Below, one piece after another: positions 11,203 through 31,312 of a stretch of DNA of 64,000 nt. Below the pieces are notes generated by a model. That model saw only the letters and a program-made list of their open reading frames with translations. It was not told the DNA's origin and did not search any database. Each line of letters starts with the position of its first letter. Position 1 is the stretch's first letter. The translations under genes and the position numbers were made by a program. Source of the DNA: a virus (taxonomy: Duplodnaviria > Caudoviricetes); the IMG/VR virus record IMGVR_UViG_3300033072_001172, positions 32,001 through 96,000 of that record; one strand, written 5' to 3'.

Positions 11203-13290
11203 ATGGCGTCATCGACGTTCTACGCGAAACGGCCCGCCCCCCAAACGTACACCACGAAGGTGGCCGACGTGCGCCTGCCGTACGATGGCACGAAATGGCA
11301 GGAGGAGATCATCGGTGCGCTGCACGAACAGCACCCGTACCTGCCGAACACACAACTGCAGCTGTCGATGAACGTTCGCAACGTCAAGCAGGGCTACGCG
11401 ATCGGCAACCTCAACGTGTCCGACCGGGTTCGGATTCCGGTGATTATCGATCAGTTCCTGCTGAAGCCGTTCGACATGTTTCTCAAGGACGGCCAGTTGC
11501 ATCCGCTGAACAAGAGCACGCTTCTGGCCGCGTTGGAGGCTCGCAATTTCGGGACGGCAACACCCCCTGGTCAAGGTGAGTCGTCGGACGTGTTTCTCAC
11601 GAACTCTCGCCCGCCGTATGACGGCAAGTACACGTTCGCTTCTGCCCAGGACAAACATGCTTTTTTGGGCATGTTCAACAAGCGGAAAGACCAGGCGGGA
11701 GCGGGCGGCCGCGACCCTTTCCATGTTGATATCAAACAGCTCGCCGCCACAGACCACGGCATGGACGACCGGCTTGTCCAGAAGTTGCTCAGTTCACCTG
11801 GTGGGCGTATTTACTTGCAGATGATGCTGAGCGGTCAGGTTTCGCCGCCAAAGAAAGAGAAGGCGCACGGCAAGCTGGGAGCCTGGACCGAAGGCAAGCC
11901 GGAAGAAGTTGAGAAGGCGCTGACGAACGTGTTCGGCGCTGACGGTGCCGAATACTACATGGCGGGCGACCCCGCGGTGAAGGAAGTACTGGAGAACGCC
12001 AGAAAGGGTGACTTCTCCAAGATGAAGCACCACGGCTCCGTGCGCAAAATGCTTGAAACCAACGCGCAGCGCAAGATCGCCATGGTCAAGCAGTCTGCTG
12101 TGCATTTGCCGGATCAGCCGACTGACGAGCTGGTTGCCGGCACCGTCAAGGTCGCCAACGCGGGCGGCGCGCTGGTCGGTGGTCTGTTGTTCGACCGTGT
12201 GTACGACCTGGCGTTCGGTACGCGCAACGACGCCCTGTTCTTTGTCGAACCGGACGTTGGCTTCGACAACAACCGCGTGTTCTACGGGCAACAGTCAATC
12301 AAACAGGCGGAGCTCAAGGAGTTCAGGAAGAACTTCCAGAACATCGAACCGAACGTCGGGGACACCGGTGTCTGGTTCTGGTTCGAGGGGGACAAGCTGG
12401 CCTGTACCTCGGTGGCGCGAATCGTCGACCGCCAGCAGCACAGCCAGACCTATTTCGTGCGTGGCGGTGGCTCCGTCAAGCTGAGCCACTCAGTGGTCAC
12501 CAAAAACGACCTGGTGGCCGCCGGCGCCCCGGAAGGCGACACGCTGGTGGTGCCTGGCACCGCTCTCTGGTTGCCGGTCCCCCAGAAGCGTGCCATGTAC
12601 GGGCGCCCGGCCACGAATTTCACCCGGGATTACCTGCTGGTGCAGGAGGCACACGGCAATGTCAAAGTGTCCGTGTACCAGAACAACATGCGGCATGTCA
12701 TGCACGACGCCATGCTGCCCTCGCAGGCCGAAAAGTGGCTCCACAACTATTACGAGCCGGAGTCAGTTCAGACGATCATGACGGCCGCGCGCAACAACGG
12801 CACCGTCAAGATCGCGGCGCACCCCGGCATGTTCGTCACGGAGACCAAGACGGCCACGATCGACCTGGACACGATGCTGACTCGCATCCGTGAACAGGCC
12901 AAAGTCGCCGCGGACGCCTTGTTCGTGGTGAAGGACGCTGACTTCGGTCCTCTGACCAACTACGACACGACGGCGCTCGGCAAGGTGGACCCGATGGCGG
13001 CAGCGATCGTCAAAGCCGCGACCGACATCGAAGACGACGAGCGCGCCCGCAGTGTTGACAACGTGCTGGGCTTGAACATCATCAACGACCAGAACATCCA
13101 GAGATTCCTTGACGGCATCGACGGCCTGGACCGGTGCAAACAGTTCTGCATGAAATTGTTGCTGGCGGCGCGACTTGGTCTTAACATCGACGCGAACGCG
13201 GCACGCACGGCTGCCTTCGCCCTGGAGTCGATCATTCAGGATCTGGAGCAGCTGCGGCACGCAACCATGTCGGCCTCTGACGGTGAGTAG
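11203..13290 (+). CDS. Hypothetical virion/head protein (695 aa), K-x-A rich
   Basis: GAGGA RBS; coding-like codon bias; KIA, KVA, KQA, KTA, KAA motifs. Confidence 0.75.
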   Translation: MASSTFYAKRPAPQTYTTKVADVRLPYDGTKWQEEIIGALHEQHPYLPNTQLQLSMNVRNVKQGYAIGNLNVSDRVRIPVIIDQFLLKPFDMFLKDGQLHPLNKSTLLAALEARNFGTATPPGQGESSDVFLTNSRPPYDGKYTFASAQDKHAFLGMFNKRKDQAGAGGRDPFHVDIKQLAATDHGMDDRLVQKLLSSPGGRIYLQMMLSGQVSPPKKEKAHGKLGAWTEGKPEEVEKALTNVFGADGAEYYMAGDPAVKEVLENARKGDFSKMKHHGSVRKMLETNAQRKIAMVKQSAVHLPDQPTDELVAGTVKVANAGGALVGGLLFDRVYDLAFGTRNDALFFVEPDVGFDNNRVFYGQQSIKQAELKEFRKNFQNIEPNVGDTGVWFWFEGDKLACTSVARIVDRQQHSQTYFVRGGGSVKLSHSVVTKNDLVAAGAPEGDTLVVPGTALWLPVPQKRAMYGRPATNFTRDYLLVQEAHGNVKVSVYQNNMRHVMHDAMLPSQAEKWLHNYYEPESVQTIMTAARNNGTVKIAAHPGMFVTETKTATIDLDTMLTRIREQAKVAADALFVVKDADFGPLTNYDTTALGKVDPMAAAIVKAATDIEDDERARSVDNVLGLNIINDQNIQRFLDGIDGLDRCKQFCMKLLLAARLGLNIDANAARTAAFALESIIQDLEQLRHATMSASDGE

Positions 13291-13292
13291 CC

Positions 13293-13649
13293 ATGTCGAA
13301 CGCCATTGCCAAAGTAAAACGTGTGTCAGTACGGCGACGGCTTGAAAACGTCAGACGTGATCCGAACAGCACGTTCTTCGGTAAGAACGTAAAGGTCGCC
13401 AACGTTCTCAGGTTGAGGGAAGCATTGTCCTCGGAGAACCTTCGCGAGATCGTTGCTCATCTTCTTAATGTCCGTCCGGCGAACGTATCGAGTGCTGTCG
13501 CCCAGCTGACACTTGACCAGTTGTCGAAGTTGCGGGAACTGGTCCAGAAGGTCAGCCGGCAACTGCATCGGGAAGTTGCTCGCCAACGGTGGGAAGCGAC
13601 AATGTCTCCGCCGAAGAAGGCACCGTCCAATGCCGCTCAGTCGGTCTGA
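13293..13649 (+). CDS. Small basic hypothetical protein
   Basis: 118-aa ORF filling the operon gap. Confidence 0.6.
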   Translation: MSNAIAKVKRVSVRRRLENVRRDPNSTFFGKNVKVANVLRLREALSSENLREIVAHLLNVRPANVSSAVAQLTLDQLSKLRELVQKVSRQLHREVARQRWEATMSPPKKAPSNAAQSV

Positions 13650-14712
13650 ACTGGCCGCTAAGTACGCGCTATCCGAGCAAACGCTCGTTCAGCTTGAGGA
13701 GCTGGACGACAGCCCGTTGATTGACGGTTCCAATCAGAAAACAGTCCGTGGACGCATCGTCTACGAAGTAACACCGGAACTTGATCGCTGGCTGCGGGTT
13801 GGCCGCACGCAGTTCACCCAGTTCCGTGGCCGGCTGATGCCGTGTCAGCGCGCCATTTTCAGCGCACTGATCGCAGAGGCCGACGTAACACGGGCCTACT
13901 CGTCCTTGCGTGAGCGCGGGGTCATTCCGCCGTTCATGAACGCGAACTTGATCGGCGTGTACTGGCAGGAACTTTTGCGCCTGGCGCCACCGGAATGCTT
14001 GCCCTTTCTTACCGGCCAGCAGCAGGAGCCTGATGACCTCAGCAGGTTGATGATGCAGCAGCTGGGCATTCTGGATGCGTTCGAGGATCCGGAGCGTCTG
14101 GCGGAGAAGTTTTACTGGCTGAACACACCTGATCTTCGCGTGCTCACAGACGCGTTTCTGGCCGTGCAGTCGGACACCCAAACCTTGAAGAAGTACCTGT
14201 CGGATGCGCATCGTTTCGATGTGACGGATGCGAGTATCCGCGAGTATCGCCGGTACTTTTTCGACATCGCCGTTTGCGGCATGGAGGGCGCCGCGGCCTT
14301 TGCCGACCTGGCAGCGTCACCACAATACCGGAGCGTGGTCGGTAACGCTTTGCGCGATGGCACCCTGGGCTCCGTGGTGTCCGAGCTGAAACTGAGCTCG
14401 TTGATCGACCATCGAATTTCGTTGGAGGCCGCCCTCACACGCAGCCGCGCGTTTGTGGCGACCAACCCGAGCAAAAGCGCCGGAGTACAGGCGCAGGTCG
14501 GCGCGTTCAAGGCCATGCAGGACCTGTACTACACCGTACACACGCTTGAGCACGCCAAGGACAAGGATGAGGGGACAAGCGACGCCGCGATGATGGAAAT
14601 CCTGAAGCTGAAGCACAACCAGACCGTCAACGAGAATCAGCTGTCGATTAACGACATTCCAAAAGAGGCACGCGATGCCATTGTCACTGGTCCGGTCAAA
14701 GCCAGATCATAA
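13630..14712 (+). CDS. Hypothetical protein, candidate terminase small subunit
   Basis: ATG 13630 (MPLSRS) follows GAAGG; helical; directly upstream of and overlapping TerL; function inferred from position only. Confidence 0.5.
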   Translation: MPLSRSELAAKYALSEQTLVQLEELDDSPLIDGSNQKTVRGRIVYEVTPELDRWLRVGRTQFTQFRGRLMPCQRAIFSALIAEADVTRAYSSLRERGVIPPFMNANLIGVYWQELLRLAPPECLPFLTGQQQEPDDLSRLMMQQLGILDAFEDPERLAEKFYWLNTPDLRVLTDAFLAVQSDTQTLKKYLSDAHRFDVTDASIREYRRYFFDIAVCGMEGAAAFADLAASPQYRSVVGNALRDGTLGSVVSELKLSSLIDHRISLEAALTRSRAFVATNPSKSAGVQAQVGAFKAMQDLYYTVHTLEHAKDKDEGTSDAAMMEILKLKHNQTVNENQLSINDIPKEARDAIVTGPVKARS

Positions 14713-16309
14713 TGACGAAGCCGCCGTCATTGCCAGCTATACCGACGCGTTTCGGAATCTGATTTACGTTCAACGCGATAAACGCTTCGACGTCGACAGC
14801 CGTCAGTATCTCCCGGTACTGCTTGAGTCGTCGGCACCTGAGTTCACGCTCAAGTGTGGACGCCAGGTAGGCAAGACACAAACCATCTGCGGAATTTTAG
14901 GCCTGCACGGCGCCACGACGCCAGGCTACGCCCACATGTACATCACGCCGCGAGGCGATCAGGCCAAGGACGTGTCACGTAATAAGTTTTCGACGATGAT
15001 GCGCGACTCACCCTTTCTGCACAAGTTCGTGCCCGGTCAGCGTTCACGTGATGAGTCGTGGCAGCTGGGCATGAAGATGCTGAAGAACGGCGCTCATTTC
15101 TATTTCATGTCCGCGTACCACACAGCGGACGCCATCCGCGGGCGTTCGGCCGGCTACCTGGTAAAGGACGAAATCCAGGACTTGATCGCCGACCACATGG
15201 CGCCGATTGACGAGTGCGCAGCCAACTTTCCTGACGCCAGGTTCTTTAACTGCGGTACCCCCAAGACATTTCAGAATCTTCTGGAACAAAAATGGCAGCG
15301 CTCCACCCAGGCGGAATGGCTGGTCAAGTGCGCCGCGTGCGGTCATTGGAACTTCCAGGATCACAAGATCCTCGGCAAGAAGCACTACGTGTGCGTGAAA
15401 TGTGGCGGGCAGATCCGCATCGAGAACGGTCAGTGGGTCATGGGCAACCCGGATCGTTTTTCGGTTCATCAGGGTTTTCGGATCTCCCAGTTCATGAACC
15501 CGAACACACGCTACTGGCGTCTGATTGAGAAGCTGGAGACATACCCGTTTGCCCAGTTCTGTAACGAAGTTCTCGGGATCAGCTATGCGGAAGGCGATGT
15601 CGTTCTCACCAGGGACGACATTCTGAACGCGTGCGATGACAATACGCCGATGTTGCGTCGGGTCCCGACAAGATTCGGCATCGTTGTGCATGGCGGGGTT
15701 GACCACGGTACCGGTAACATGGCGGCCAAACGGGCCCGCGGTCTCACACAGGCCTCGTTCACTGTGGTTGCTACCGGCGGGTTTGACAGTGAAGGACGTT
15801 TTCGCGTGTTGTCGTTGCAACGACTGACCGGATCGGATTCTGATCTGTCGGCCCAGCCGGCTGTCATCAATAACATCCTGCGCAAGATGAACTGTCGCTT
15901 CGTGATCTCTGACTGGGGGTTTGGTGCGCCAAATAACCGCCGGCTCATCAACGAATTCGCCTGGGACCCGTCGCGGTTTTTTGAGATCCAGGAGTCGGAC
16001 TCATTGGGCAAGTTTGTGGCGTGGAACGACGCCGCCGGACGGTACATCGTCAATCGCAGCGAGATGTTCATGAAGGTCATTGACGACATCAAAAATCGGC
16101 GCATCGTGTTTCCGCGGCGCCAGGACATGGAGCCGTTCATTCAGGACTTCACGTCGATTTACGTCGAGCTCGACGCCGACCACAACAAACGCCGGTACGA
16201 TCACACCAACCCGGATGACGCCTTCCACGCGGTGGCCTTTGCGTATCTGGCCGCGTTAATGGACGCCGGGCTGCTGAGCAGATTCAATCTGGTACCGGAT
16301 GTGACTTGA
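14675..16309 (+). CDS. terL: Terminase large subunit
   Basis: Walker A KCGRQVGKT, IRGRS, Walker B LVKDEIQD, GTPK coupling motif, CAAC..CVKC zinc finger, nuclease GGVDHG and DDAFHA. Confidence 0.93.
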   Translation: MPLSLVRSKPDHNDEAAVIASYTDAFRNLIYVQRDKRFDVDSRQYLPVLLESSAPEFTLKCGRQVGKTQTICGILGLHGATTPGYAHMYITPRGDQAKDVSRNKFSTMMRDSPFLHKFVPGQRSRDESWQLGMKMLKNGAHFYFMSAYHTADAIRGRSAGYLVKDEIQDLIADHMAPIDECAANFPDARFFNCGTPKTFQNLLEQKWQRSTQAEWLVKCAACGHWNFQDHKILGKKHYVCVKCGGQIRIENGQWVMGNPDRFSVHQGFRISQFMNPNTRYWRLIEKLETYPFAQFCNEVLGISYAEGDVVLTRDDILNACDDNTPMLRRVPTRFGIVVHGGVDHGTGNMAAKRARGLTQASFTVVATGGFDSEGRFRVLSLQRLTGSDSDLSAQPAVINNILRKMNCRFVISDWGFGAPNNRRLINEFAWDPSRFFEIQESDSLGKFVAWNDAAGRYIVNRSEMFMKVIDDIKNRRIVFPRRQDMEPFIQDFTSIYVELDADHNKRRYDHTNPDDAFHAVAFAYLAALMDAGLLSRFNLVPDVT

Positions 16310-17915: not shown

Positions 17916-19115
17916 ATGCAGCTGACCAACATGCGCGTTACTGACTTCGCCCGTCAGGCGGCCGACGGCTACCTGGAGAACGGTGGCGACCTCAACAAGG
18001 CCGTGGCCAAATTGGCCAAGGACAACGAACTCACGCCGATGCAGATCCAGCGTGTCGTGGAAGCCGCGAACCATGAAGTGAACGCCCGGCAGTACAAGAC
18101 CGCGGAGGACAAGCGCTTCGTGTTTGAACTGGCTTCCCGCGACAAGGTGATGGAGTTGCTCGGCACCAAGGAAGCAGAGAGTGTGAAGACCGCCGCTGCT
18201 GACGTGGAATCGTTCTATGTGCTGGAACGTGATCGCCGGCAGCCGCCGCACACCAAGATTGCCTCGACCGATGATGCCGCCCGTTCGAAAGAAGGGCTGT
18301 ACACGCGCATGAACGATGTGTCGGCCGGCCGTGACGCGGCGCTGCACATGCTGGAGCGTTGCTACGCCAAGCTCAGCGAATATTCGCGCGATGTTCGTGC
18401 GGAAAAACTGGCTGTCGACCTGCGCCGCAACGAGAACTTCACCAAGTTCGTCAAAGAGGCGCAGCGGCTGATGCTGGAAGAGAACATCCCGTTCCACTTC
18501 ATGTTCAGTGGCTCACCCGGGCTGATCCACCCGGAAGTGAAGGAGGCCATTTTCAAGGACGCACACGCGCAGTTGACCAAGCGCGCCAACTCCGTTGAAA
18601 AAGCGTTGCTGGCCAAGTTTGACCCCAAGGCCAGCAAGGAAATGGGCATGGAGGTGGTTAACGGAAACCAGCCCCTGTTCATTCATCTGCGAGCGACCGC
18701 TGGTGACGCCATCAACAGTTTCGGCGTCGGCTGCGTGAGCGACGCTGTGAACAACTGCCTGGCCGGCGTGGTTACCGCGATTCACCAGTTGAACAGCGAC
18801 AAGGACGTCAAGCGTTACATCGAGCAGGAAGTCCAGCCATTCGCCAACAACGTGCAGCGTGGCGTCAAGTACGCCATGGCGTACGTGCGCGAACACGCCA
18901 ACGACAATACCTGGCTGGCCAAAACTGCGAACTGGTCCGGTGTGGTGTCCATGCTGGACAAAATCGGCCGGATCTTCCAGCTGATCAACCAGGGCGGGCA
19001 GGCCGCGGAATCGGCCGGTGGCAACATGTCTCGCTACGTGCGTGATCTCATGTCCCCCGCGTTCGTGGAAGGTGGTCAGATCATCAACTCGACCGGACTG
19101 TCCAAGGCAAAGTAA
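17916..19115 (+). CDS. Putative internal head protein, K-x-A rich
   Basis: GAGG RBS; KLA, KTA x3, KIA, KEA, KRA motifs. Confidence 0.7.
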   Translation: MQLTNMRVTDFARQAADGYLENGGDLNKAVAKLAKDNELTPMQIQRVVEAANHEVNARQYKTAEDKRFVFELASRDKVMELLGTKEAESVKTAAADVESFYVLERDRRQPPHTKIASTDDAARSKEGLYTRMNDVSAGRDAALHMLERCYAKLSEYSRDVRAEKLAVDLRRNENFTKFVKEAQRLMLEENIPFHFMFSGSPGLIHPEVKEAIFKDAHAQLTKRANSVEKALLAKFDPKASKEMGMEVVNGNQPLFIHLRATAGDAINSFGVGCVSDAVNNCLAGVVTAIHQLNSDKDVKRYIEQEVQPFANNVQRGVKYAMAYVREHANDNTWLAKTANWSGVVSMLDKIGRIFQLINQGGQAAESAGGNMSRYVRDLMSPAFVEGGQIINSTGLSKAK

Positions 19116-19118: not shown

Positions 19119-19748
19119 ATGATGCTCAAGCACGCTTACGCGCCATTGTTCCGGATTACGGACCTCTCACGGGATGACGAGGTGGCCGCAGTTCGCTTCG
19201 CCACACATATCGCGAAGCTGGCGATCAGCGGGGACACTGCCGGCCTGGAGTGCTTCGTAAAGGAAGCGTTCGCGGGGGTTCGCCCGGAGGCTCTTGCGGA
19301 GCTGACCGCGCTCGCCCAGGTGTTTGTGAACCACGGAACCGCCACGGAGAAACGTGCCTTTTCGCCGATGATGTCAGGCCTGCAGGCGTCCCTGGCCGCG
19401 CTGCCCATGAAGGAGCTGCAGAAACTGCGCGAACAGGAAGCCAAACGCAGCGAGGCACTGGCCCAGGCGCTGGCGGAAGTGGTCAAGACGCATCCGCACC
19501 TGGCCAGCGACCCGAAGACCTTGGCGGAACATTTTGACGTCATGGCGCGGTTCGCCCCTGATGTTGCATCATCGTCGGTGCTGTCGGGGAACATTCTGAG
19601 CCAGCTGCACAAACTGGGCCCGGGCGCTTTGACACACCAAATGATCAGCGAATTGCGTAAGATTCAAGAAGGGATGGACGCCGAACGCCAGAATCGTGTC
19701 AAGCAGACCATCGACGCTGTTTCGCCGTTTACCCGACTGCCGTCATGA
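19119..19748 (+). CDS. Putative internal head protein
   Basis: 209 aa, helical; KHA, KLA, KEA, KRA. Confidence 0.7.
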   Translation: MMLKHAYAPLFRITDLSRDDEVAAVRFATHIAKLAISGDTAGLECFVKEAFAGVRPEALAELTALAQVFVNHGTATEKRAFSPMMSGLQASLAALPMKELQKLREQEAKRSEALAQALAEVVKTHPHLASDPKTLAEHFDVMARFAPDVASSSVLSGNILSQLHKLGPGALTHQMISELRKIQEGMDAERQNRVKQTIDAVSPFTRLPS

Positions 19749-21157
19749 GTGAGCAGCCCACAGTTGAGTACCAGGCACCGGACGCCAATGTCACGTTCTC
19801 ACGTGATGTTGGTGGTCCGTTTCGGTCAGATGACCCGGCGATCCTCAACACCTCGGAGCAATCAGGGTACACACCGGGGCGCGGTCTCGCTGCGTTCACG
19901 ACTGGTGCGCTGAGCGCCGCCGCACTGCAGCCGCTGATCGCGATGCTGATGGGCGTCAAGAAAAGCCCGTTGAACTTGAGGAAACTTATGGCGATTGCCG
20001 GTCTTTCTGGTGCCAGCGCAACTGGCCTGGACTACATGCGCGAAAAGATCCGCTCCGCCGTGGACAAACCCAAACACGTCAAGCGTGCCCAGATGACGGA
20101 GTCGGAGCTGATCGACACACTGTGGGTGACAAAGCTGGCGGCCGGATATCGTACTATCGATCCGAATGCTCCGTTCATCGGCGGCAGCGGTGGTGGTAGC
20201 GCGTCCGCACCAGGGACTCCTCCGCGCGGCATTCCGCTTCCGCCGCAACCGGTCGCTACGACGGCCGCAACACCGACCGCGCCGCCGCTTAGTCGGCACC
20301 CCAGCGATGTGGACGCTCGCTCCGTTTTGAAAAACAAAGCGGTGCAACGTGCCCGCTTGAGTGGCACGGGACCGGCAAGGGGTTACTCGACGTTCGATGC
20401 TATCGATAAGCTGAAGCAACAGCGTCTCCAGCAGCCGACAATTCTGCCCGTATACGGGACCATGCCCTGGTCACGCGGTAATGAACAAGCATCGGCTGCT
20501 ACTGCGCCGACCTCTGTGCCGGCTGCTGCTGCGCCGACCGCTGCTGTTATGCCGACTGCCACGCCGGCCTCCGCACCGGCCTCCGCACCGGCCTCCGCAC
20601 CGACCGCTTCTGGTGACCTCAGCACGTTGGAGACACCAAAAGATGTATTTAAGAGGCACATCGAGGCCGCGCGTGCCGACGTGCGTAACGCGTTGCCCGA
20701 ACTTTACAGTCAAGGTGCGGTCGATAACGCCACACTGGCGCGCGGGCTGGGTATAGCACAGCCAGGCCTGTGGAACTTCCTTAAGGATCATGCTTCCATA
20801 GATCCGCGGACAATTATCCACGGCAAAGCTCGACGCGGACAGAATGAGTTTTTGGACACGCTTCGGCCATCGCTACTGGGTCGCGCACAGAAAGGTGAAG
20901 TGTCGGACGTTGCCAATCCGTTGCTCGTCCCGTCTGCCGGCAAGGCCCCGGCAGAGAAAGAGCTGCCGGCAGAGTCTGACGGCACATTTGACATCAAACA
21001 GATGATGCCGTTGCTGATGCTGAGCCAGCTTGGCGGTCAAGGCGGTCAAGGCGGATTCGGCAACATGATCAACATGATGATGATGCTGCCGATGCAGATG
21101 AAGTTCATGGAGCGCGCGATGCGCGGGATGGAAGGACCGAAGAAAGGCAAGCTGTAA
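19745..21157 (+). CDS. Putative internal/ejection protein with Pro/Ala-rich linker and Met-rich C-terminus
   Basis: Two hydrophobic helices near the N-terminus; KRA and KLA; translational coupling at both ends. Confidence 0.65.
   Translation: MSEQPTVEYQAPDANVTFSRDVGGPFRSDDPAILNTSEQSGYTPGRGLAAFTTGALSAAALQPLIAMLMGVKKSPLNLRKLMAIAGLSGASATGLDYMREKIRSAVDKPKHVKRAQMTESELIDTLWVTKLAAGYRTIDPNAPFIGGSGGGSASAPGTPPRGIPLPPQPVATTAATPTAPPLSRHPSDVDARSVLKNKAVQRARLSGTGPARGYSTFDAIDKLKQQRLQQPTILPVYGTMPWSRGNEQASAATAPTSVPAAAAPTAAVMPTATPASAPASAPASAPTASGDLSTLETPKDVFKRHIEAARADVRNALPELYSQGAVDNATLARGLGIAQPGLWNFLKDHASIDPRTIIHGKARRGQNEFLDTLRPSLLGRAQKGEVSDVANPLLVPSAGKAPAEKELPAESDGTFDIKQMMPLLMLSQLGGQGGQGGFGNMINMMMMLPMQMKFMERAMRGMEGPKKGKL
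20564..20602 (+). repeat. 12-bp tandem repeat CCGGCCTCCGCA x3 (PASA)
   Basis: Three exact copies read directly from the sequence. Confidence 0.9.
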
Positions 21158-23889
21158 TGAGCTTCGTCAAATTCGTTGATCCTTGTGTGGACTTCGGCGA
21201 GGCGCCCGCGGTGGATATGTTCAGCCGCAGCTGGGCGAAGCTGGCGTCGTCCACGTACATGCCGGCCGAAGTCGAACAGTTCCTCAAGACAGCCAGGCCT
21301 GTGCCTGGACACCGTCTGTTGCTGGTTCATGGTCTGGGATCCAGTGAGTACTATGGGGCGAATCGTAACGGCGACGCCTTTCCTGAGATGTGGAAAGGCG
21401 CCAAGAACCTCATCGAGGACAACGTTGACCGCGGCTACGGGTTCAAGACGTTTGAGAAGAACGCACACACCTACCGTGATCACCGCAACCATGACCCGAA
21501 GCTCAGCATTGGCGGCAAGGTCAAGCTGGCTGCCTGGAACGACAAGATGCACCGGGTTGAGCTGGTGATTCCTGTCAGCGAGAAGCTGGCCGGTGACGTG
21601 GTCGATGCGATTGACCGCGGCATGAAGATTGCCGTCAGCATGGGGTGTTTCATCGCGGGCACATTGATCACGATGGCGGATGGCTCGCGCAAACCGATCG
21701 AGCAGATTCAGGTCGGTGACCGTGTGCTGACGCATCACGGCCGCGCACGGCCAGTCACGGAGCTGCACAAGCGTCCGTACGACGGTGTGTTTTTCGCGAT
21801 TCGCCCAGAAGCACACGAACCGTTTGTGTGCACGCAAGAGCACCCGCTGCTCGTGGTTGACCGCGACCAGGTAAAAAAGGACAAGTCAGGCGGTCCGCGT
21901 TGGGTGACTCGCGAAGAAGCGGAGCAGCTGGAGCCGAAGTGGCTTCATGCCGAGTGCTTCGACCCGGAGCAGCACTACCTGCTCGAACCGGTACCGACCG
22001 ACGTGTTGACCCCGGAGTACGCGACGCGTGCGTTTGCCCGTCTGCTTGGCTATTACGTCGCTGAAGGCCATGTTCTGCGCAACAAAGACAAGCAGATCTG
22101 CGGTGTCGAGTTCACGGTCAACAAGTCCGACCAGTTTTTGACGGAAGTTGACGAGCTCTGTGCTGCGTACGGCACGAAGAACAAACCGGTTGTCCGCCAG
22201 CGCGACAACACGGAGCATGCTGTTTGCGTGCAGGTGTTCGATGCCGAGTTTGCCGAACGATGCTACGCGCACGGCGGGTCTTACGCCAAGAACAAGAAGC
22301 TGTCCGAGTCGTTCATGGCGTGGCATCCGGAAATCCAGCGCGAGTTCATCGGTGCGTTCGCTGAGGGTGATGGCTGCGGCCCTGACGACGGTACGCTGCG
22401 TCTCTCCACCGGATCCGATGCTCTGGCGTGGCAGCTCCTGCAGGTGCTGGCGCGGCTCGACATCTGCGCTTCGATCAGCTGCTTGACCCACAAGGCCGGT
22501 TCAGGTTTCTCGACCAACACCACGTATGAGTGGGTGTTGCATGTCGGGAAGCAGTGGGCACAGCGCCTGCGTGATGTCTGCTCCAAGATTCAGCACGCTG
22601 ACGTGGCGTTGACCAAGAACTCTCGCCTGCATGCGGGCAACTACATCATCACTCCGGTGCGTGAACTTGAAGCCTATCGCGCCCAGACCGACGTCTACAA
22701 CTTCGAAGTGGATGAGGACGAATCGTACGTGGCGGCCGGCGTCGCCGTGCATAACTGCCGTGTGCCATTTGACGTCTGCAGCATTTGCGGCAACAAGGCC
22801 AAGCATCGTGGCCAATACTGCAAGCACGCCGCTTACCAGATGAATGATGTGCTTGACGACGGGCGCAAGGTGTACGTCGATAACCCGCAACCGAACTTCT
22901 TCGACATTTCTGTCCTGGGGCATCAGGGCCAGGGTCGTCCGGCCGACGCATCGGCCTACTCGATCATGAAAGTGGCCAACCACGAAGTGAAAATTTTCCG
23001 CGGATTCAGCCCCGCAAAGAAGGCCGACGAGAAGAAGTCAGACATCAATAAGGAGATCCCGGCGACCGGTGAGGGTCTGCCGGAACTTGAAGCTCCGGCG
23101 ACATCAGAAAAGCGGGGCCCGTTTGCCCGCTCTGAACTGGAGCTGACGCCGGAAAAACTGATGGAAATGATCCGTCAGATCCTGCCGATCGACATGGACA
23201 CCGCCGATGGCCCGTCGCCACAGTGTGTTATCACCATCCGGCGGACGATTGGTTTCGGCAAGGCGCCGAAGGAACAGGACGAAGCACACAAGGTTGCGGC
23301 GCTGTCAACGTTGACAGCCGCCGGCGCCATTCTTCGTCCGGAACTTCTCGACGAGCTGCAGCTGCATGACGTGGCCATTGACTTCAGCAAAGTGTCGGCC
23401 TCGATGCTATCGCTGTTGCGGCCCGAGATGCCTCGCTTTTCTTTGTGGTTGCCCTACTTCGGTGATCGCGTGTATCGTAACGTCAAACTGGCAACGACAC
23501 CGCGTCCCATTATGATGACCGACAAGTACGGTCAGTACCTCAACACCGTGAAGCACGCCTTGACCAACCGCAACAGCGTGGCCGAGCTGGTTAAGGCTGT
23601 CGAAAACAGCTTCAGCCTCAAGATGGCCATCGCACGTGACGACCTGGCGGAGTTGCAGAAGTTTGCAGCCAAAGGTTCAGGTGGGCCTGGCGGACTTAGT
23701 GCAGAAAATCTTGTCGCGGCCATGTTGGCACCGTTGCTCGCCGGTGCATACTTTAGAAGTCAGCAGTACTCCGGGACGCCAGTCGGACCGGTCCGCAGTT
23801 TTGTGGCGGACCACCCGGTGGCAACTGGAACATTGTCAGCGTTGCTGTGGCACAAACTGAAGGGCGGGCGTATCCCGCTCATGCAGTAG
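21157..23889 (+). CDS. Prohead maturation protease (HK97/assemblin-type fold) with intein and C-terminal extension
   Basis: NRNGDAF, putative catalytic His in YRDHRNH, putative catalytic Ser in VSMG, CSIC..CKH zinc finger, FFDISV..PAD; upstream of the capsid genes. Confidence 0.85.
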   Translation: MSFVKFVDPCVDFGEAPAVDMFSRSWAKLASSTYMPAEVEQFLKTARPVPGHRLLLVHGLGSSEYYGANRNGDAFPEMWKGAKNLIEDNVDRGYGFKTFEKNAHTYRDHRNHDPKLSIGGKVKLAAWNDKMHRVELVIPVSEKLAGDVVDAIDRGMKIAVSMGCFIAGTLITMADGSRKPIEQIQVGDRVLTHHGRARPVTELHKRPYDGVFFAIRPEAHEPFVCTQEHPLLVVDRDQVKKDKSGGPRWVTREEAEQLEPKWLHAECFDPEQHYLLEPVPTDVLTPEYATRAFARLLGYYVAEGHVLRNKDKQICGVEFTVNKSDQFLTEVDELCAAYGTKNKPVVRQRDNTEHAVCVQVFDAEFAERCYAHGGSYAKNKKLSESFMAWHPEIQREFIGAFAEGDGCGPDDGTLRLSTGSDALAWQLLQVLARLDICASISCLTHKAGSGFSTNTTYEWVLHVGKQWAQRLRDVCSKIQHADVALTKNSRLHAGNYIITPVRELEAYRAQTDVYNFEVDEDESYVAAGVAVHNCRVPFDVCSICGNKAKHRGQYCKHAAYQMNDVLDDGRKVYVDNPQPNFFDISVLGHQGQGRPADASAYSIMKVANHEVKIFRGFSPAKKADEKKSDINKEIPATGEGLPELEAPATSEKRGPFARSELELTPEKLMEMIRQILPIDMDTADGPSPQCVITIRRTIGFGKAPKEQDEAHKVAALSTLTAAGAILRPELLDELQLHDVAIDFSKVSASMLSLLRPEMPRFSLWLPYFGDRVYRNVKLATTPRPIMMTDKYGQYLNTVKHALTNRNSVAELVKAVENSFSLKMAIARDDLAELQKFAAKGSGGPGGLSAENLVAAMLAPLLAGAYFRSQQYSGTPVGPVRSFVADHPVATGTLSALLWHKLKGGRIPLMQ
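21646..22755 (+). mobile_element. Class 1 intein with LAGLIDADG endonuclease (370 aa)
   Basis: CFIAGTLITMADG start, block B TQEHP, LLGYYVAEG and FIGAFAEGDG, VYNFEV..VAVHN/C end. Confidence 0.96.
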
Positions 23890-23935: not shown

Positions 23936-24367
23936 ATGTTTCTGGATACCATCGACAAGGCGCTCGCGGCCGCTGCCAAGAATGAACCCGTCAAGACGGC
24001 CGCTGAACAGATCACTGAGCAGACGGTGACCAAGACGGCTTCCGGCGACGAGAAGCTCGCGAAGCTGGCCAGCGAAGCGATCGCAACCGGTCGCCTCATG
24101 GGCCACGGTTTCGTGCTCGAACTGCGCAAGGAAGCCGCCGCGGCCTGGAACAAGGCGGCAACCCTGGAAGGTGGCCACGTGTCCGGCTCGAAGATCACCG
24201 AGCCCGGGTCGGTCACCGACAAGGCCAACAAGCTGCCGACCAACAAGGACAACCCGTCCAAGTCCGACATCGACGAGACCTCGGTCAAGCATCTGACCGA
24301 GAAGAACCTGACGATGCCGACCAAGACGGAGAAGGCCGACAAGCTGATCAAGAAGGTCTCCAAGTAG
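23936..24367 (+). CDS. Putative scaffold/internal head protein
   Basis: GGGAG RBS; strong C-ending codon bias; KTA, KTA, KLA, KLA, KEA, KAA within about 75 aa. Confidence 0.75.
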   Translation: MFLDTIDKALAAAAKNEPVKTAAEQITEQTVTKTASGDEKLAKLASEAIATGRLMGHGFVLELRKEAAAAWNKAATLEGGHVSGSKITEPGSVTDKANKLPTNKDNPSKSDIDETSVKHLTEKNLTMPTKTEKADKLIKKVSK

Positions 24368-24438
24368 TAAGCGCAGGCCGCCGGTCGAGTGAACTGGCGC
24401 TTTCGGAAACACAGGCTGACGCGCACAAGAACAATGGC

Positions 24439-24469
24439 GACTGTGGGCGGTGATGAACCGCCCACAGTC
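24439..24469 (+). other. Intergenic 13-bp stem hairpin without a U-tract
   Basis: GACTGTGGGCGGT-gatga-ACCGCCCACAGTC. Confidence 0.7.
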
Positions 24470-24483
24470 CAGGGAAAACAAAC

Positions 24484-24933
24484 ATGACCAACTTCGTTGA
24501 GATTCTCCAGCGCAAGCAGGCGCAGCTGGTGACGAAGGAAGCCGAGCTTCCGGAAGCCTTGAAGGCCAACCAGTTCGCCAAGAAGGAAAAGAAGGAACCG
24601 AAGGAAGACAACGACAAGGACGACAAGAACGACGCCGATGACAAGGGCGGCCGCGACGAGTATCCCAAGGGATACGACAAGGAAGCGGCTCAAAAAGAAA
24701 TCGGCACGTTCGCTGACACGGTGGTGCAGCTGACCGAAAAGATCGCGACCATCGTGCGGGAGAATCACAACACGGTGGCGGAACAGCTGTTTCGCAACAT
24801 GGTGTCGTCGAGCATGAACATGAAACTCGCCGGCATGACCAATGAGGCGTTCGAGGACCCGAAGGTCCTGGTCAAGAACGCCTACACCATGATGCTGAAT
24901 GCGGCTGATCTGCTGGACCTGCAGTTGAGCTGA
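24484..24933 (+). CDS. Putative scaffold/internal head protein
   Basis: Charged low-complexity stretch; KEA x2, KIA, KLA. Confidence 0.7.
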   Translation: MTNFVEILQRKQAQLVTKEAELPEALKANQFAKKEKKEPKEDNDKDDKNDADDKGGRDEYPKGYDKEAAQKEIGTFADTVVQLTEKIATIVRENHNTVAEQLFRNMVSSSMNMKLAGMTNEAFEDPKVLVKNAYTMMLNAADLLDLQLS

Positions 24934-25009
24934 AATCCGGGGTTAGCCGCCCGGAAGTAGTCTGGCCATACCCGCTGCCTTTGAGAAAACAACCGAACGA
25001 GGAATTGTC

Positions 25010-25333
25010 ATGACCACGCTGACCAAGATTGCCAACGAACTGAGCCAGGCCCGGCACGACCAGGCCTACGCCGACCTGTTCGAGACCATTCGCAAGTACC
25101 CGAAGCACGAAAAGGTCGCGGTTCTCCACGCGGCCCAGCAGGTGGTGGAGGCCGAGGGCCGCGGTGAAATCCCGCCGCAGACCGAGTTCGGCCGCCTGCA
25201 CCTGGCGAATGAACTGACCAAGGCCGCGGCCATTGCCGGCAACGAGGAGTTCCGCAAGGAAGCGGCCAACGCGTTTGCCGCCGGCCAGCTGGCCGCCATC
25301 CTCCTGCAGGAAGCCGCCGCCAAGGCCGAGTAG
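25010..25333 (+). CDS. Putative scaffold/internal head protein
   Basis: GAGGA RBS; KIA, KVA, KAA, KEA. Confidence 0.75.
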   Translation: MTTLTKIANELSQARHDQAYADLFETIRKYPKHEKVAVLHAAQQVVEAEGRGEIPPQTEFGRLHLANELTKAAAIAGNEEFRKEAANAFAAGQLAAILLQEAAAKAE

Positions 25334-25354
25334 TTTTCGAATTGGGTTTGTGCC

Positions 25355-25597
25355 ATGAAGAATCTTCAGGATCTGCTCGATCGTGCTCACACGGCTGCCG
25401 GGGTTTCGCCCCAGCGGTCGTTCGACACGGGCGAGCATTTTGAAGAGGACAAACCCGATTCGATTGTCCAGGCGCACATGGCCGAACTGCAGAAGAAGGC
25501 CGACGCGGATGTTGTGCGTCGGCAGGTGTGTCTCGGCATGCATCTGTTGTTGTCTGCCGCAGACAATCTTTCGGTGTTGGACACAAAGAAGGCTTAG
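25355..25597 (+). CDS. Small hypothetical head-region protein
   Basis: 80 aa; contains KKA and ends in KKA. Confidence 0.6.
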   Translation: MKNLQDLLDRAHTAAGVSPQRSFDTGEHFEEDKPDSIVQAHMAELQKKADADVVRRQVCLGMHLLLSAADNLSVLDTKKA

Positions 25598-25603
25598 CCT
25601 GCT

Positions 25604-26050
25604 ATGTCCAGTCAGAAAGACTTCGTTGAGCTGACCAAAGCCGCCAAGGACACTTTGGCGGAGTTGCAAACCGTGGCCAGTGAGAACACCAAGCTGCACA
25701 CGGAACTGGCGCGCCGGGACAGCTTGCTGCAAAAGCAGGCACAACTGCTCGACGCGTACGCGCACGTACTGACCCTGGTCAAAGAAGGTGAGATTGATGT
25801 CGGCCAGGTCGCAGAGGAACTTGATCGCATCATCAAGCTAGGATTGTCGACGTACAAAGAAGCGTCTGTGGCGCCTGGCGCTGCCGACAGGATTTTTGGT
25901 GAAATCCTGCCGGAAAATTCTGGTGGTCAGGTTGAAAACCAGAAGACAGCACACATGCTTGAAGACGGAAGAGCGCTCGACTCCGTTTCAGCGTGGTTGC
26001 TGCAATGGCGCGAAAAACGCTTTGGCACCCCATCGGGTCTTGTGACCTGA
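25604..26050 (+). CDS. Putative capsid scaffolding protein
   Basis: Coiled-coil N-terminus; KAA, KQA, KEA, KTA; precedes the decoration and capsid genes. Confidence 0.6.
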   Translation: MSSQKDFVELTKAAKDTLAELQTVASENTKLHTELARRDSLLQKQAQLLDAYAHVLTLVKEGEIDVGQVAEELDRIIKLGLSTYKEASVAPGAADRIFGEILPENSGGQVENQKTAHMLEDGRALDSVSAWLLQWREKRFGTPSGLVT

Positions 26051-26675: not shown

Positions 26676-26698
26676 TAGCCCCTGAGCACGCTTTTGCA

Positions 26699-26834: not shown

Positions 26835-27995
26835 ATGAGTCTGGCCATGGCAGACCTGCAGAGCCAGGAGTTCAACGAACTCTTCATCGACTCCGTGAAT
26901 TACGGAGGCGAGGCGCTGGAAAAGACGTCGGCGGCGATCGGCGACTACATCCAGCAGAAGATCCGCGAACAGGGCTTTGCACGCAAGATCCTCGAATTCG
27001 GCACCGTGACCGAACGCGACCCGCAGATGCAGCGCGACCCCAACGGTGTCCACGACGAGCTGGAGTACGTGGTGCCGCTGGAACCCGACACTGTCGCCCA
27101 GCGCATCGCCGTCCGCGGTGAACCCGACAAGACCTGGATCCAGGGCAAGCGCTTCCCGATCCGGTTCTACGACGTCAGCACCGATGAGTTCAACAAGACC
27201 GAACAGGAGCTGCTGGCCCACCTGGAACCGGTCCTGAAGATCATCGAGCAGAACAGCCTGAAGGACCTGCAGGAACAGGAAGACATCAGCTTCCTGGACC
27301 ACGCCAAGGCCTCGGCCTTCCTGGCCACCTGGCGCCTGAACCAGGCCGACCGCCTGAGCGGTGGTCTGACTGGCTTCAGCACCGGTGAAGGCAGCCTGGT
27401 CGACGCCTTCTTCAAGGGCACGACCACGGTTCCGCCCATTGCCAACCCGGTGACCAGCAACATCATCATGAGCCCCAACACCTACTGGCGCCGCGAGACC
27501 GTCGCGGACCTGGCCCAGGTGATGGCGAACCGCCAGCTGCAGCTGCGGGTCATCCTGATGCACGAAGCGACGTACGTCGACGCCCTGCGCTGGTTCGCGG
27601 ATGAAATCGGTTATGGGATCGCAGAAAAGATCACCGTGGACGGTTACCGTGAAGCCAAGGTCGGCGGCTACACAATCATCACCACGATCAAGACCAACCC
27701 GAAGCTGGTCCGCCCTGGCCATATCTACGGGTTCTGCGACAAGTCGGCCCTGGGCAAGTTCCTGCAGCTGATCGCACCGAAGTTCTGGATTAACAAGCGG
27801 GCAAATGTCATCACCATGCGCGGCTGGGAAACCGTTGGTGCCGGCATCGGCAACGTCAACGGCTGCGCCCTGCTGATGCTGGCAGGCAGCGAAACGCTGG
27901 ACGTGCGTGTGCCCACTTCGGTGTACGCCACCGGCGTGATCAAGCTGTACCCGGAAGGTGTCGACCGCACCGCGGGCGCCGACCCCGACGCGTAG
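26835..27995 (+). CDS. Major capsid protein (HK97 fold)
   Basis: 386 aa; AGGAG RBS; very strong codon bias; KIREQGFARKIL and DLQEQEDISFL; followed by a terminator; expected position after protease and scaffold genes. Confidence 0.85.
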   Translation: MSLAMADLQSQEFNELFIDSVNYGGEALEKTSAAIGDYIQQKIREQGFARKILEFGTVTERDPQMQRDPNGVHDELEYVVPLEPDTVAQRIAVRGEPDKTWIQGKRFPIRFYDVSTDEFNKTEQELLAHLEPVLKIIEQNSLKDLQEQEDISFLDHAKASAFLATWRLNQADRLSGGLTGFSTGEGSLVDAFFKGTTTVPPIANPVTSNIIMSPNTYWRRETVADLAQVMANRQLQLRVILMHEATYVDALRWFADEIGYGIAEKITVDGYREAKVGGYTIITTIKTNPKLVRPGHIYGFCDKSALGKFLQLIAPKFWINKRANVITMRGWETVGAGIGNVNGCALLMLAGSETLDVRVPTSVYATGVIKLYPEGVDRTAGADPDA

Positions 27996-28013
27996 TCGTC
28001 AAGGCCTACACCC

Positions 28014-28048
28014 ACAGGGCCCTCTTTCCGGAGGGCCCTGTTTGTTTT
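28014..28048 (+). terminator. Intrinsic terminator after the MCP
   Basis: ACAGGGCCCTC-tttccg-GAGGGCCCTGT followed by TTGTTTT. Confidence 0.85.
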
Positions 28049-28099
28049 CCGGAGGTCCCTGGGTATGCTGGGCTTATACTTCCAACAGGAGTTTTTGTT

Positions 28100-28852: not shown

Positions 28853-28861
28853 GAGTAACCA

Positions 28862-29428: not shown

Positions 29429-29434
29429 TCTTTT

Positions 29435-29459
29435 GGTGGCTCGGTTCGCCTGAGCCACC
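29435..29459 (+). repeat. 25-nt hairpin GGTGGCTCGGTTCGCCTGAGCCACC, copy 1
   Basis: Identical to the reverse complement of 44947-44971. Confidence 0.9.
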
Positions 29460-29468
29460 GGTGATGAT

Positions 29469-30326
29469 GTGCCCGCAGGACATTCTGTGCTCGACTTTGA
29501 CGAACTGACGGTCAACGGCATCACCGCGAGATCCCTCGTGGTGAACTGGTCGTTCCGTCCCACGGTGGATCTCATCGGGAACTACCGCGTCGATGTCAGC
29601 CGCTCCCTGTCTCCGCAGGATGAGTTCATCGTAATCGCGAAAGGTGTCCGCGCGGACCAGTTCGTGTACGTGGACCAGGATCCCGCGGAGCTCAGCAAGT
29701 GGGCGACCTTGTACTACAAGGTCAGGGTGTATCAGGTGGACTCCACGGGAGCTGAGCTCCCGAACACGGAGTCCACGTCGGTAGCCGTGCGAATGAACCA
29801 GAAGGTGTCCGCACTCGGATTAGCCATCGTGAAAGCCCGTGAGCTGCACTTCCGTCATCTGGAAATCGGCCGGGAATCCCTGGTTTACCGTAAGCGCACC
29901 ACTGGCCAGGCGTGTCCCAATTGCTGGGACCCCGTGGAGGAACGTGTCAAACGACGCGACTGCTCCATCTGCTACGGCACCGGTGTGATCGGCGGGTTTT
30001 ACCCGCCACTGCGGGTACTGATTCAATACCATCCGTCCCGGCGTGCCAACATGGTCGAAGGGTCGATCCGCGAGATTATCTACGTGGACGCGTCCATGGG
30101 GCATTTTCCGGTCGTCAGTCCGCGGGACGTCATCTACGAGATCGGCACTGGTAACTGGTATCTGGTGAACCAGGTCAGCCCGCGTGAACACTTGCGGACG
30201 ATCATCATGCAGCAACTCGTGCTGCGTGTCCTTGACCCGCAAAGCAAGGAGCAGGATCTGGCAGGCCTGACCAAGGATCAGGTCACCTCTGATCTGCACA
30301 CATCCCATTTGATTACGGCGGTCTAA
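29469..30326 (+). CDS. Head closure/neck protein with Fn3-like N-domain and zinc finger
   Basis: Fn3-like pattern (VNWS..YRVDVS..YYKVRV); CPNCWD..CSICYGTG. Confidence 0.65.
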   Translation: MPAGHSVLDFDELTVNGITARSLVVNWSFRPTVDLIGNYRVDVSRSLSPQDEFIVIAKGVRADQFVYVDQDPAELSKWATLYYKVRVYQVDSTGAELPNTESTSVAVRMNQKVSALGLAIVKARELHFRHLEIGRESLVYRKRTTGQACPNCWDPVEERVKRRDCSICYGTGVIGGFYPPLRVLIQYHPSRRANMVEGSIREIIYVDASMGHFPVVSPRDVIYEIGTGNWYLVNQVSPREHLRTIIMQQLVLRVLDPQSKEQDLAGLTKDQVTSDLHTSHLITAV

Positions 30327-30327
30327 C

Positions 30328-30810
30328 GTGCCGGGACCCAAACTAAAAAAGAAGCCACTCGCCATCGTGACTTTCTCGGATGACCCTCCGAAGGAAGTTC
30401 TCGAACGTGTGCGGGCCCAGCTTGAGGCCTCGGTGCGCCAGGCGGCCGACGCCAACACGTCGCCGCTGGCCAAAGACTCGCTGCCAAGATCGATTCACGC
30501 CACCGTCCTCAACGACAACACGATTGTCATCGACTCGGACAAAACCTGGGCCAAGTACGTCGATGAGGGCACGAGCGGGGCAACATTGTTTTCGTTGATA
30601 GGGAAGATCGTTCCTCTAAGATTAAGGTCAGGAGTCACGATCTTCAGGCGGGTGACCTTGGAGGCCATCAGCCGCGGTCGCTGGCGTATACCGCCTCGGG
30701 CCGGGACGCATTTTGTCCAGGAAGGTATGCTGGCCGCCATGGCCAGAGACCCCGCAATAGCACGGTACGGCGCCGATCTTGATGACGACGTCGACGAAAT
30801 CTGGGTTTAG
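30328..30810 (+). CDS. Neck/tail completion protein
   Basis: WAKYVDEGT and W.IP...GTHFV motifs, typical of HK97 gp10-like tail completion proteins. Confidence 0.6.
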   Translation: MPGPKLKKKPLAIVTFSDDPPKEVLERVRAQLEASVRQAADANTSPLAKDSLPRSIHATVLNDNTIVIDSDKTWAKYVDEGTSGATLFSLIGKIVPLRLRSGVTIFRRVTLEAISRGRWRIPPRAGTHFVQEGMLAAMARDPAIARYGADLDDDVDEIWV

Positions 30811-30820
30811 GAGAAGACAC

Positions 30821-31312
30821 ATGTCGGAAAACGTGAAAACTCTGATCGAAAGCATGCGCGCTGCCGTGTCGACCACAAAGACAGCTCGCGAGCGCGTCAA
30901 GACCGCGTCGGTCCAGGACGACTTCGATCGTGGCGACCTTCTGGCCAACACCATCCACCGGATTACCGCTCAGGAAGAAGAGCGCGTGTTCCCGGAGGAA
31001 GTTCGCCAGCGCAAGGAGGCCGCCGAAAAAGCGAACGCGGTCAAGGAAGCTGCCGACGAATCCGCCAACGAGTCCGCCGACGACTCCGCCAAGGAAGTCG
31101 ACGAGAACAAGGCTGGCGAACAGCCGCCGGCCGAGTCGGCCGCGCCCGCCGCAACCGAGACCAAGGAAGCCAGCGTGGAGCTGCCTGGTGCCGCGACACT
31201 GCTGCAGCATCCGCTGGTCCGCAAGGGCTTCGATGACTACATCGAGGAGCACCGTGAAGAAGTGCAGAAACTGGCGGCCGAAATCGTCAGCAACGCATCG
31301 ATCACGGCCTGA
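30821..31312 (+). CDS. Acidic K-x-A-containing protein
   Basis: AGGAG RBS before ATG 30821; KTA x2, KEA x3, KLA. Confidence 0.7.
   Translation: MSENVKTLIESMRAAVSTTKTARERVKTASVQDDFDRGDLLANTIHRITAQEEERVFPEEVRQRKEAAEKANAVKEAADESANESADDSAKEVDENKAGEQPPAESAAPAATETKEASVELPGAATLLQHPLVRKGFDDYIEEHREEVQKLAAEIVSNASITA

Follow-up and report, generated by a model that had tools for sequence, protein, structure and literature searches.

A conserved Lys-x-Ala motif in the head-assembly proteins of a tailed phage and its Arash-like relatives, and its probable reading as a prohead protease recognition code

Introduction

The gp21 protease of phage T4 recognizes the code L/I-x-Glu in gp22, gp67, gp68, gp23 and gp24, and in herpesviruses a protease-scaffold fusion with release (R) and maturation (M) sites cuts at (V/L/I)-x-Ala|Ser. 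To our knowledge, the prohead protease codes studied so far in large myoviruses (T4, phiKZ and SPN3US) all direct cleavage after Glu. The proteases of two large phages, phiKZ gp175 and SPN3US gp245, process many head proteins at S/A/G-x-Glu (PMC5694885, PMC10052503). The subject of this study is a different short motif, Lys-x-Ala (K-x-A), in an uncultured tailed phage (Caudoviricetes; IMG/VR record IMGVR_UViG_3300033072_001172). The stretch analyzed, hereafter the window, comprises 64,000 nucleotides (positions 32,001 to 96,000 of the record) and is part of a single 133,897-bp contig; the motif is concentrated at window positions 11203-31312, the head block. In proteins of head assembly, both here and in distantly related phages, Lys-x-Ala reaches two to three times the chance level, and the motif is probably recognized by the phage's own prohead protease, whose gene is interrupted by an intein.

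The K-x-A excess in the head block

In the 20 plus-strand open reading frames (ORFs) of positions 11203-31312, K-x-A occurs 91 times whereas 44.1 occurrences are expected (Poisson, 4.3e-10); further counts are given as observed vs. expected, and ORFs are named by their first position. A blind scan of all residue pairs at spacings of 0-4, with 1780 patterns having enough expectation, ranked K-x-A first among the gapped dipeptides of the block, such that the post-hoc choice of the motif withstands correction for multiple testing. The second-ranked pattern, V-K (P 7e-4), is the left flank of the K-x-A motif itself. The other 123 ORFs of the genome (~35,000 residues) contain the motif at expectation (175 vs. 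167). Shuffling within blocks of 10-30 residues gave a z of ~8 inside the region, also with 10-residue blocks, and of ~0 outside, which rules out local K/A-rich composition as the cause. A signal at the DNA level is likewise ruled out, as the matching codons, AAR NNN GCN, number 91 in frame vs. 14 and 10 out of frame. R-x-A is depleted in the block (30 vs. 43), and K-x-S and K-x-G are at expectation. The motif-rich ORFs are unrelated to each other, which rules out paralogy; the sole paralogous pair in the operon is 31352/31937.

Shuffling of whole proteins revealed an excess in ORFs 11203, 17916, 23936, 24484, 25010, 25604 and 30821 and in the protease ORF. The strongest individual excesses are those of 17916, the protease exteins, 11203, 30779 (6 vs. 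1.9), 24484 and 25604. Taken singly, only 17916 and the protease pass a 10% false discovery rate over 143 ORFs; the signal in the head block is thus collective rather than a property of each ORF. The motif-rich ORFs, the parts of the protease ORF and the major capsid protein (MCP) gene are as follows (aa, amino acids; counts refer to K-x-A unless another pattern is named).

11203..13290, + strand: 695-aa protein of unknown family; 12 vs. 4.6, five of them within residues 536-604
17916..19115, + strand: 399-aa all-helical head-module protein; 12 vs. 3.4, the most enriched ORF of the genome
19119..19748, + strand: 209-aa protein; 4 vs. 1.8
21157..21645, + strand: N-extein of the predicted prohead protease, residues 1-163, with His109 and the putative catalytic Ser161 (VSMG); 7 vs. 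1.2
21646..22755, + strand: 370-aa intein (Hint and LAGLIDADG), from Cys164 to His-Asn533, followed by Cys534
22756..23889, + strand: C-extein, comprising the end of the predicted protease domain (Cys-rich site, His557) and a helical scaffold-like tail; 8 vs. 2.8
23936..24367, + strand: 143-aa K/A-rich small head protein; 6 vs. 2.9, K-x-A-[AST] 5 vs. 0.9
24484..24933, + strand: 149-aa acidic helical protein; 6 vs. 1.9
25010..25333, + strand: 107-aa protein; 4 vs. 1.5
25355..25597, + strand: 80-aa protein; 2 K-x-A, C-terminal residues K-K-A
25604..26050, + strand: 148-aa coiled-coil-like protein; 4 vs. 1.0
26835..27995, + strand: MCP, 386 aa (phrog_2522 major head protein, E 4e-8)
26916..26933, + strand: K-x-S variant L-E-K-T-S-A, MCP residues 28-33, in ungapped alignment with [LM]-x-K-E-A-[GS] of the relatives
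30821..31312, + strand: 163-aa acidic protein; 6 vs. 1.9, K-x-A-[AST] 5 vs. 0.6

Pfam and PHROG searches revealed no function for nearly all of the K-x-A-rich ORFs. ORF 11203 has zero matches in either database; it is weakly similar (E 0.009) to gp218, an abundant virion protein of Salmonella phage Arash. The C-terminal K-K-A of ORF 25355 would resemble a cleavage product if the cut were made after Ala, and among the head-module ORFs of nine phages this ORF is the only one that ends in K-x-A.

The initial annotation of this DNA had listed K-x-A pentamers in otherwise dissimilar proteins around the protease, and every one is present in the ORF to which it was assigned; the related EKTSAA lies at MCP residue 29. 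It had also described the motif as scarce in sheath, tube, terminase and portal, which is borne out by the counts for the 945-aa putative sheath (0 vs. 2.0), the putative tube (1 vs. 0.5), the terminase (2 vs. 2.0) and the putative portal (4 vs. 2.5), the sheath, tube and portal being putative because their family matches are weak or none. The MCP (2 vs. 1.6), the K/A-rich ORF 28100 (3 vs. 2.9) and a putative RNA polymerase (10 vs. 14.3) are not enriched either. Nor are the patterns of the T4 type (L-x-E 44 vs. 34.4, I-x-E 20 vs. 16.1) or of the phiKZ type (S-x-E 10 vs. 21.4, A-x-E 36 vs. 45.4, G-x-E 16 vs. 25.8) in the window.

Two ORFs on the contig but outside the window, C1:29873-31060 (395 aa, two genes upstream of the portal) and C1:126939-128003 (354 aa), have no family hits and each contain 9 K-x-A vs. 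3.3. Judged by their motif content they are candidates for extra substrates encoded away from the head block.

The same blind scan, applied to T4 gp67, gp68, gp21 and gp22, recovers the known L/I-x-E code of gp21: I-x-E (15 vs. 5.9) and L-x-E (16 vs. 7.0) are the top two patterns, each enriched ~2.5-fold. K-x-A shows no excess in the heads of lambda (1 vs. 5.3), HK97 (7 vs. 5.3) and phiKZ (15 vs. 14.8), unrelated phages, which rules out that the excess is a general property of scaffold proteins.

Recurrence and conservation in relatives

Since the motif was defined on the window, the relatives provide an out-of-sample test. By MCP, the closest cultured relatives are phage Arash and three Vibrio phages, at 25-26% identity (Arash MCP gp226, 26%). 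In Arash, gp218-225, the eight genes upstream of the MCP gene, contain 44 K-x-A vs. 19.7, the top pattern, and the remaining genes of the 37-kb stretch are not enriched. Seven IMG/VR relatives (GC content 40-50%; MCP ~26% identical) are enriched in the ORFs upstream of the MCP gene, e.g. 63 vs. 31, 65 vs. 34 and 46 vs. 22, but not in the MCP and downstream ORFs (77 vs. 90 in total). K-x-A also ranks first (1456 vs. 452, 3.2-fold) in the 17916 family, as sampled by 150 representatives with less than 50% pairwise identity, of which 98% exceed 1.5-fold.

A logo built from 385 sites of seven phages carries information solely from -2 to +3, [LM]-[EVT]-K-x-A-[SA], with [LM] at -2 in 46% of the sites (4-fold) and Ser or Ala following the Ala in 43%. 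Beyond these six residues the flanks are flat, and there is no helical (i+3/4/7) periodicity. This span is the footprint of a short linear motif. In the window the flanks follow a lineage variant, E-x-[VT]-K-x-A-[ASNT], and the density of [VT]-K-x-A in the head block is ninefold that found elsewhere.

In pairwise comparisons within the 17916 family, the Lys and Ala of K-x-A are conserved in 46% and 49% of cases vs. 23% and 27% for other Lys and Ala residues; the corresponding values in the protease family are 75% and 70% vs. 51% and 52%. About half of the sites in the 17916 family are stable in position and the rest turn over, with the count remaining steady near 10 per protein. Conserved sites hardly ever have Arg in place of Lys, and in place of Ala they have only Ser or Gly. 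The motif is a protein-level feature, is specific to the head module, is conserved in relatives and is under purifying selection.

Phage G has an MCP without K-x-A and a weakly enriched head block (20 vs. 11), and the actinophage homologues of the protease, Myrna gp97 and E3 gp77, show a weak excess at most, hence no clear extension of the code to these two.

The predicted protease and its intein

The 910-aa ORF 21157-23889 is most likely a prohead serine protease with an assemblin fold, as predicted from the fold of a homologue and from conserved residues. Its intein has Pfam matches to Hom_end_hint, LAGLIDADG_3, Hint_2 and Intein_splicing and the features of a class 1 intein: Hint, LAGLIDADG, Cys1, a C-terminal His-Asn, Cys+1 and exact absence from homologues. 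The junction is uninterrupted, TSMA|CNTPFDVCSICGN, in Arash gp222, which matches the exteins of the window with E 1e-20, and in over 600 metagenomic homologues; Pfam domains are absent from all of them. The best 120 of these homologues are 481-552 aa long, which leaves no space for an intein. The intein also serves as an internal control within the ORF, with K-x-A occurring 15 times vs. 4.0 in the exteins and not at all vs. 1.7 in the intein.

Three Cys residues together with His99, Ser150 and His176 are invariant in 48 aligned family members. The equivalents of these His and Ser residues in the window are His109, Ser161 and His557, and the same residues occur in Arash and phage G. From their positions it follows that the intein falls between the Ser and the second His and sits two residues past Ser161.

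The AlphaFold2 (AF2) model of an inteinless homologue (L003:3210-4700) has a predicted local distance difference test score (pLDDT) of ~90 over residues 40-223. VIA-align superimposed this model on T4 gp21 (5jbl) with Z 11.2 and a root-mean-square deviation of 3.0 over 131/165 residues, and on 1vzv and 4v08 with Z 11.1 and 10.9. The assemblins of varicella-zoster virus, pseudorabies virus, herpes simplex virus, human cytomegalovirus (HCMV), Epstein-Barr virus and Kaposi's sarcoma-associated herpesvirus scored Z 7-11, the first two at ~11. The first 35 rows were all proteases of the gp21/assemblin type, followed by unrelated MCE domains with Z <6. Foldseek returned probabilities of 0.97-1.0 at an E of just ~0.01, which is weak taken alone. 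By tblastn, the protease domain matches phage G gp19 (31% identical to the L003 homologue, E 7e-22), which has been called a head maturation protease (PMC12484599), and also actinophage proteins annotated as prohead or capsid maturation proteases. In Myrna gp97 (L016) and E3 gp77 (L017) the same domain heads fusions of 900-1200 aa. One actinophage fusion with this domain bears the annotation "tape measure", apparently in error.

Placement of the sites

The protease family has five K-x-A sites conserved in position: 33 (GLVKQAAD, 48/48), 220 (VLQKVAS, 48/48), 251 (39/48), 387 (31/48) and 473 (LVKSAS, 44/48). Site 33 lies just before the catalytic domain, site 220 at its last strand, site 251 in the linker that comes next, site 387 between helical blocks and site 473 some 20 residues ahead of the C-terminus. 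All five are within or at most 5 residues from segments with a pLDDT below 50 in the AF2 model. As ~29% of the chain lies within five residues of such segments, five out of five is unlikely to have arisen by chance (roughly 0.002 by our own arithmetic). Sites 33 and 220 occupy the same alignment columns in Arash gp222 and phage G gp19; the window keeps site 220 as IMKVAN (residue 605), along with a nearby N-terminal WAKLAS.

The MCPs of the relatives have a single universal K-x-A, at residues 26-29, within G[LMHQ][TEV]KEA[GS] (119/120 homologues). In the window MCP, L-E-K-T-S-A occupies the columns of this motif, which accounts for the EKTSAA of the initial annotation and agrees with the tolerance of Ser in place of Ala. 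By this alignment, MCP residues 28-33 are a candidate propeptide cut. A search of the MCP profile against the PDB returned a single match, the phage G capsid protein gp27 (6wkk, E 2.5e-5), of which the 280-residue chain compared with a 282-aa gene gives no sign of a propeptide. The window MCP is ~90 aa longer than those of the relatives and has a ~40-aa insertion near residues 175-220 and a ~35-aa C-terminal extension.

ORF 17916 is, from its motif content, a candidate core or scaffold substrate. Its conserved-position sites are at residues 32, 61, 114 and 222. The AF2 model places sites 85, 91 and 114 in or adjoining a disordered linker, and sites 61 and 222 at helix ends.

A proposed proteolytic pathway and its alternatives

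Taken together, these observations make it probable that the phage's own prohead protease recognizes K-x-[A>S,G], that on maturation it degrades the motif-dense helical proteins as its core or scaffold substrates, that it processes itself and that the N-terminus of the MCP is trimmed. In this pathway, the intein-interrupted ORF 21157-23889 would encode the protease, with His109, Ser161 and His557 as its putative triad. The intein would have to be spliced out before the protease can work, because it separates Ser161 from His557. Once inside the prohead, the protease would cut itself at conserved sites close to its N-terminus, where the catalytic domain ends and within the helical scaffold-like tail, chop the motif-dense helical proteins 17916, 19119, 23936-26050, 30821 and 11203 into peptides and probably remove ~30 N-terminal residues of the MCP. 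The scissile bond is most likely Ala|Ser/Ala, with Lys at P3 and Ala at P1, by analogy with the herpesvirus assemblins. A cut after Ala is favored by the restriction of the Ala position to small residues, by the Ser or Ala that comes next and by the assemblin fold. Whereas the enrichment, its conservation, the modeled fold and the placement of the sites are observed, we infer that the enzyme is active, which bond it cuts and what becomes of its substrates.

The initial annotation had proposed that the protease cuts after K-x-A and that the motif marks packaged and processed internal head proteins. As to the code, its foundations hold: the motif is real and conserved, a neighboring ORF has a prohead protease fold, as modeled, with invariant Ser and His, and the herpesvirus Ala/Ser analogy fits. 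The location in the head module stands as well, but the density and position of the sites point to a degraded scaffold or core instead of internal proteins that persist. As a predictor of head cargo the motif flags multi-site proteins only; RNA polymerase subunits have been detected in Arash virion preparations, and the polymerase of the present phage is, as given above, not enriched.

Several observations weigh against the proposed pathway. Sites 32, 164, 180 and 318 of ORF 17916 lie within confidently predicted helices of the AF2 model, where the protease could reach them only after unfolding. The window's own catalytic domain contains seven K-x-A that are absent from the relatives. The candidate site of the window MCP is K-x-S, not K-x-A. 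The assignment of the protease is drawn from the fold of a homologue ~37% identical to the window exteins and from conserved residues, and sequence profiles from Pfam, PHROG and the PDB gave zero protease matches for the exteins or the family profile. The paper on the Arash virion proteome (PMC10585845) reports no cleavage or peptide-level data. Finally, the head proteins of phiKZ that were tested show no excess of phiKZ's own cleavage code. Enrichment is thus neither needed for nor proof of cleavage, and it can reveal a code only if each protein uses it many times.

The same protease might use the same motif but cut after Lys, i.e. hydrophobic-x-Lys|x-Ala with Leu/Met at P3 and Lys at P1, an alternative that we regard as less likely but worth serious consideration. 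It would parallel T4 L/I-x-Glu|, in which a hydrophobic P3 is likewise combined with a charged P1, and the cut of HK97 after Lys103. HK97 gp5 has the junction TFNK-SLGS, which we take to be this maturation cut, and the top adjacent pair in the HK97 head genes (L013 4028-5185), K-S (12 vs. 4.6), coincides with it. Moreover, [LM] at -2 is the strongest flank of the logo, and L-x-K is enriched as much as K-x-A in the relatives. Arguing against a cut after Lys is the +2 position, which at conserved sites accepts only Ala, Ser and Gly and would suit a shallow S1 pocket better than P2'. The near absence of Arg in place of Lys is unlike most Lys/Arg-directed S1 pockets, and in the window the excess of L-x-K is weak (47 vs. 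34), with [VT] prevailing at -1.

A motif with no proteolytic role, serving either multivalent docking or capsid targeting (to the inner capsid or scaffold) or the modification or cross-linking of Lys, is quite improbable. The restriction of K-x-A to the head module, its conservation and the position of some sites within stable helices would be compatible with such a role, and it is established for T4 that the targeting sequence of internal proteins overlaps the cleavage site. However, at least 10 copies per 400 aa and the turnover of about half the positions would be odd if the motif served docking, conserved sites in the protease family fall exactly at domain-linker borders, and Pfam and PHROG searches identified no modifying enzyme in the block. 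That K-x-A has no function and merely follows from helical structure, from a composition rich in K and A or from common descent is very improbable: in its favor, helices and a high content of K, A and E mark the enriched proteins, and several sites are at helix C-termini, but the block shuffles, ORF 28100, the rest of the genome, the lack of periodicity and of paralogy, the extra conservation of the K/A pairs and the absence, in the phages tested, of a like excess either in helical proteins from outside the head or in the scaffolds of phages whose proteases are unrelated all contradict it.

Beyond recognition of the motif by the phage's own protease, a wider model can be put forward tentatively for the Arash-like phage clade, which is almost wholly uncultured and of which two protease sites reach phage G. 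In this possible scenario the heads would mature in a herpesvirus-like manner: a protease-scaffold fusion would cut Lys-x-Ala|Ser, R- and M-like self-cleavages would free the enzyme and detach the scaffold, the dense sites would dissolve a multi-protein core, and splicing of the intein would gate activation.

Genomic context

A self-trained codon model predicts an unbroken plus-strand operon from position 42 to 36891, in which the terminase gene is followed by a run of unannotated ORFs, the 910-aa intein-bearing ORF, five small ORFs, the MCP gene and tail-side genes. It includes the following further features.

42-1895, + strand: putative portal (weak match)
within the + strand operon: 2520-aa ORF
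14675-16309, + strand: large terminase (phrog_675, E 3e-55; Pfam GpA_ATPase)

ORF 19745-21157, immediately upstream of the protease ORF, encodes a 470-aa low-complexity protein whose repeats are rich in Pro, Ala and Thr and whose C-terminal tail (MMPLLML...MINMMMMLPMQMKFMERAM...) is rich in Met and Gly; its K-x-A count is not raised (2 vs. 3.3). Downstream of ORF 30821, 31352-31927 and 31937-32512 are adjacent 191-aa paralogues (40% identity, E 5e-38) that are nearly Lys-free and contain zero K-x-A. Megablast of the region 11203-31312 against the phage collection gave no match, and scans of viral and metagenome contigs for closer relatives (P0121, 64% identical) found none.

Comparison with known systems

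The true sequence homologues of the exteins, Arash gp222 and phage G gp19, share with them the His/Ser/His residues and sites 33 and 220, but they lack the intein. Phage G further differs in its MCP without K-x-A and its weakly enriched head block. In the collection of papers searched, no description of head maturation in this family was found.

The likeness to T4 gp21 (5jbl) lies in the fold (Z 11.2), in the location of the head genes just upstream of the MCP gene, in the enrichment of a motif ~2.5-fold over chance in core or scaffold proteins, which the same blind scan detects, and in self-processing, presumed in both. Unlike in T4 and phiKZ, neither L-x-E/I-x-E nor [SAG]-x-E is enriched, the core of the motif being Lys-x-Ala. 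The enzyme of the window also differs from gp21 in having no detectable sequence-profile similarity to it, a Cys-rich insert and a helical tail of ~270-320 aa. With phiKZ and SPN3US the present phage shares a large size and the use of one short motif across many head proteins, but the motif is a different one and the phiKZ head proteins tested have no K-x-A excess.

The herpesvirus assemblin/pUL26 system resembles the phage system in its fold (Z 8-11), in the order His...Ser...His with similar spacing and in the fusion of the protease to a scaffold-like tail. The spacing from Ser to His is 26 residues in the phage protease family and 25 in the HCMV protease. A partial likeness is the small Ala followed by Ser or Ala. 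In addition, the conserved sites where the catalytic domain ends and some 20 residues ahead of the C-terminus resemble the R and M sites. In contrast to herpesviruses, Lys is obligatory here two residues before Ala, the sites are far more numerous and are spread over many separate proteins, and the hydrophobic position of the motif is at -4 relative to Ala and not at P3; the Ala|Ser cut itself is, for the phage, the predicted one.

We regard the enzyme as one of a known kind, with K-x-A as its probable new specificity. If the reading is correct, a Lys-x-Ala code, carried by a family that numbers hundreds of metagenomic proteins, would add to the known specificities; it is directly testable in the cultured phage Arash, and it would provide a sequence rule for finding processed head proteins where nearly all head genes lack annotation. 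The intein that splits the active site of the predicted protease is an added curiosity. Through the small P1 residue, the protease-scaffold fusion and the terminal release sites, capsid maturation in phages and in herpesviruses would be tied more closely together.

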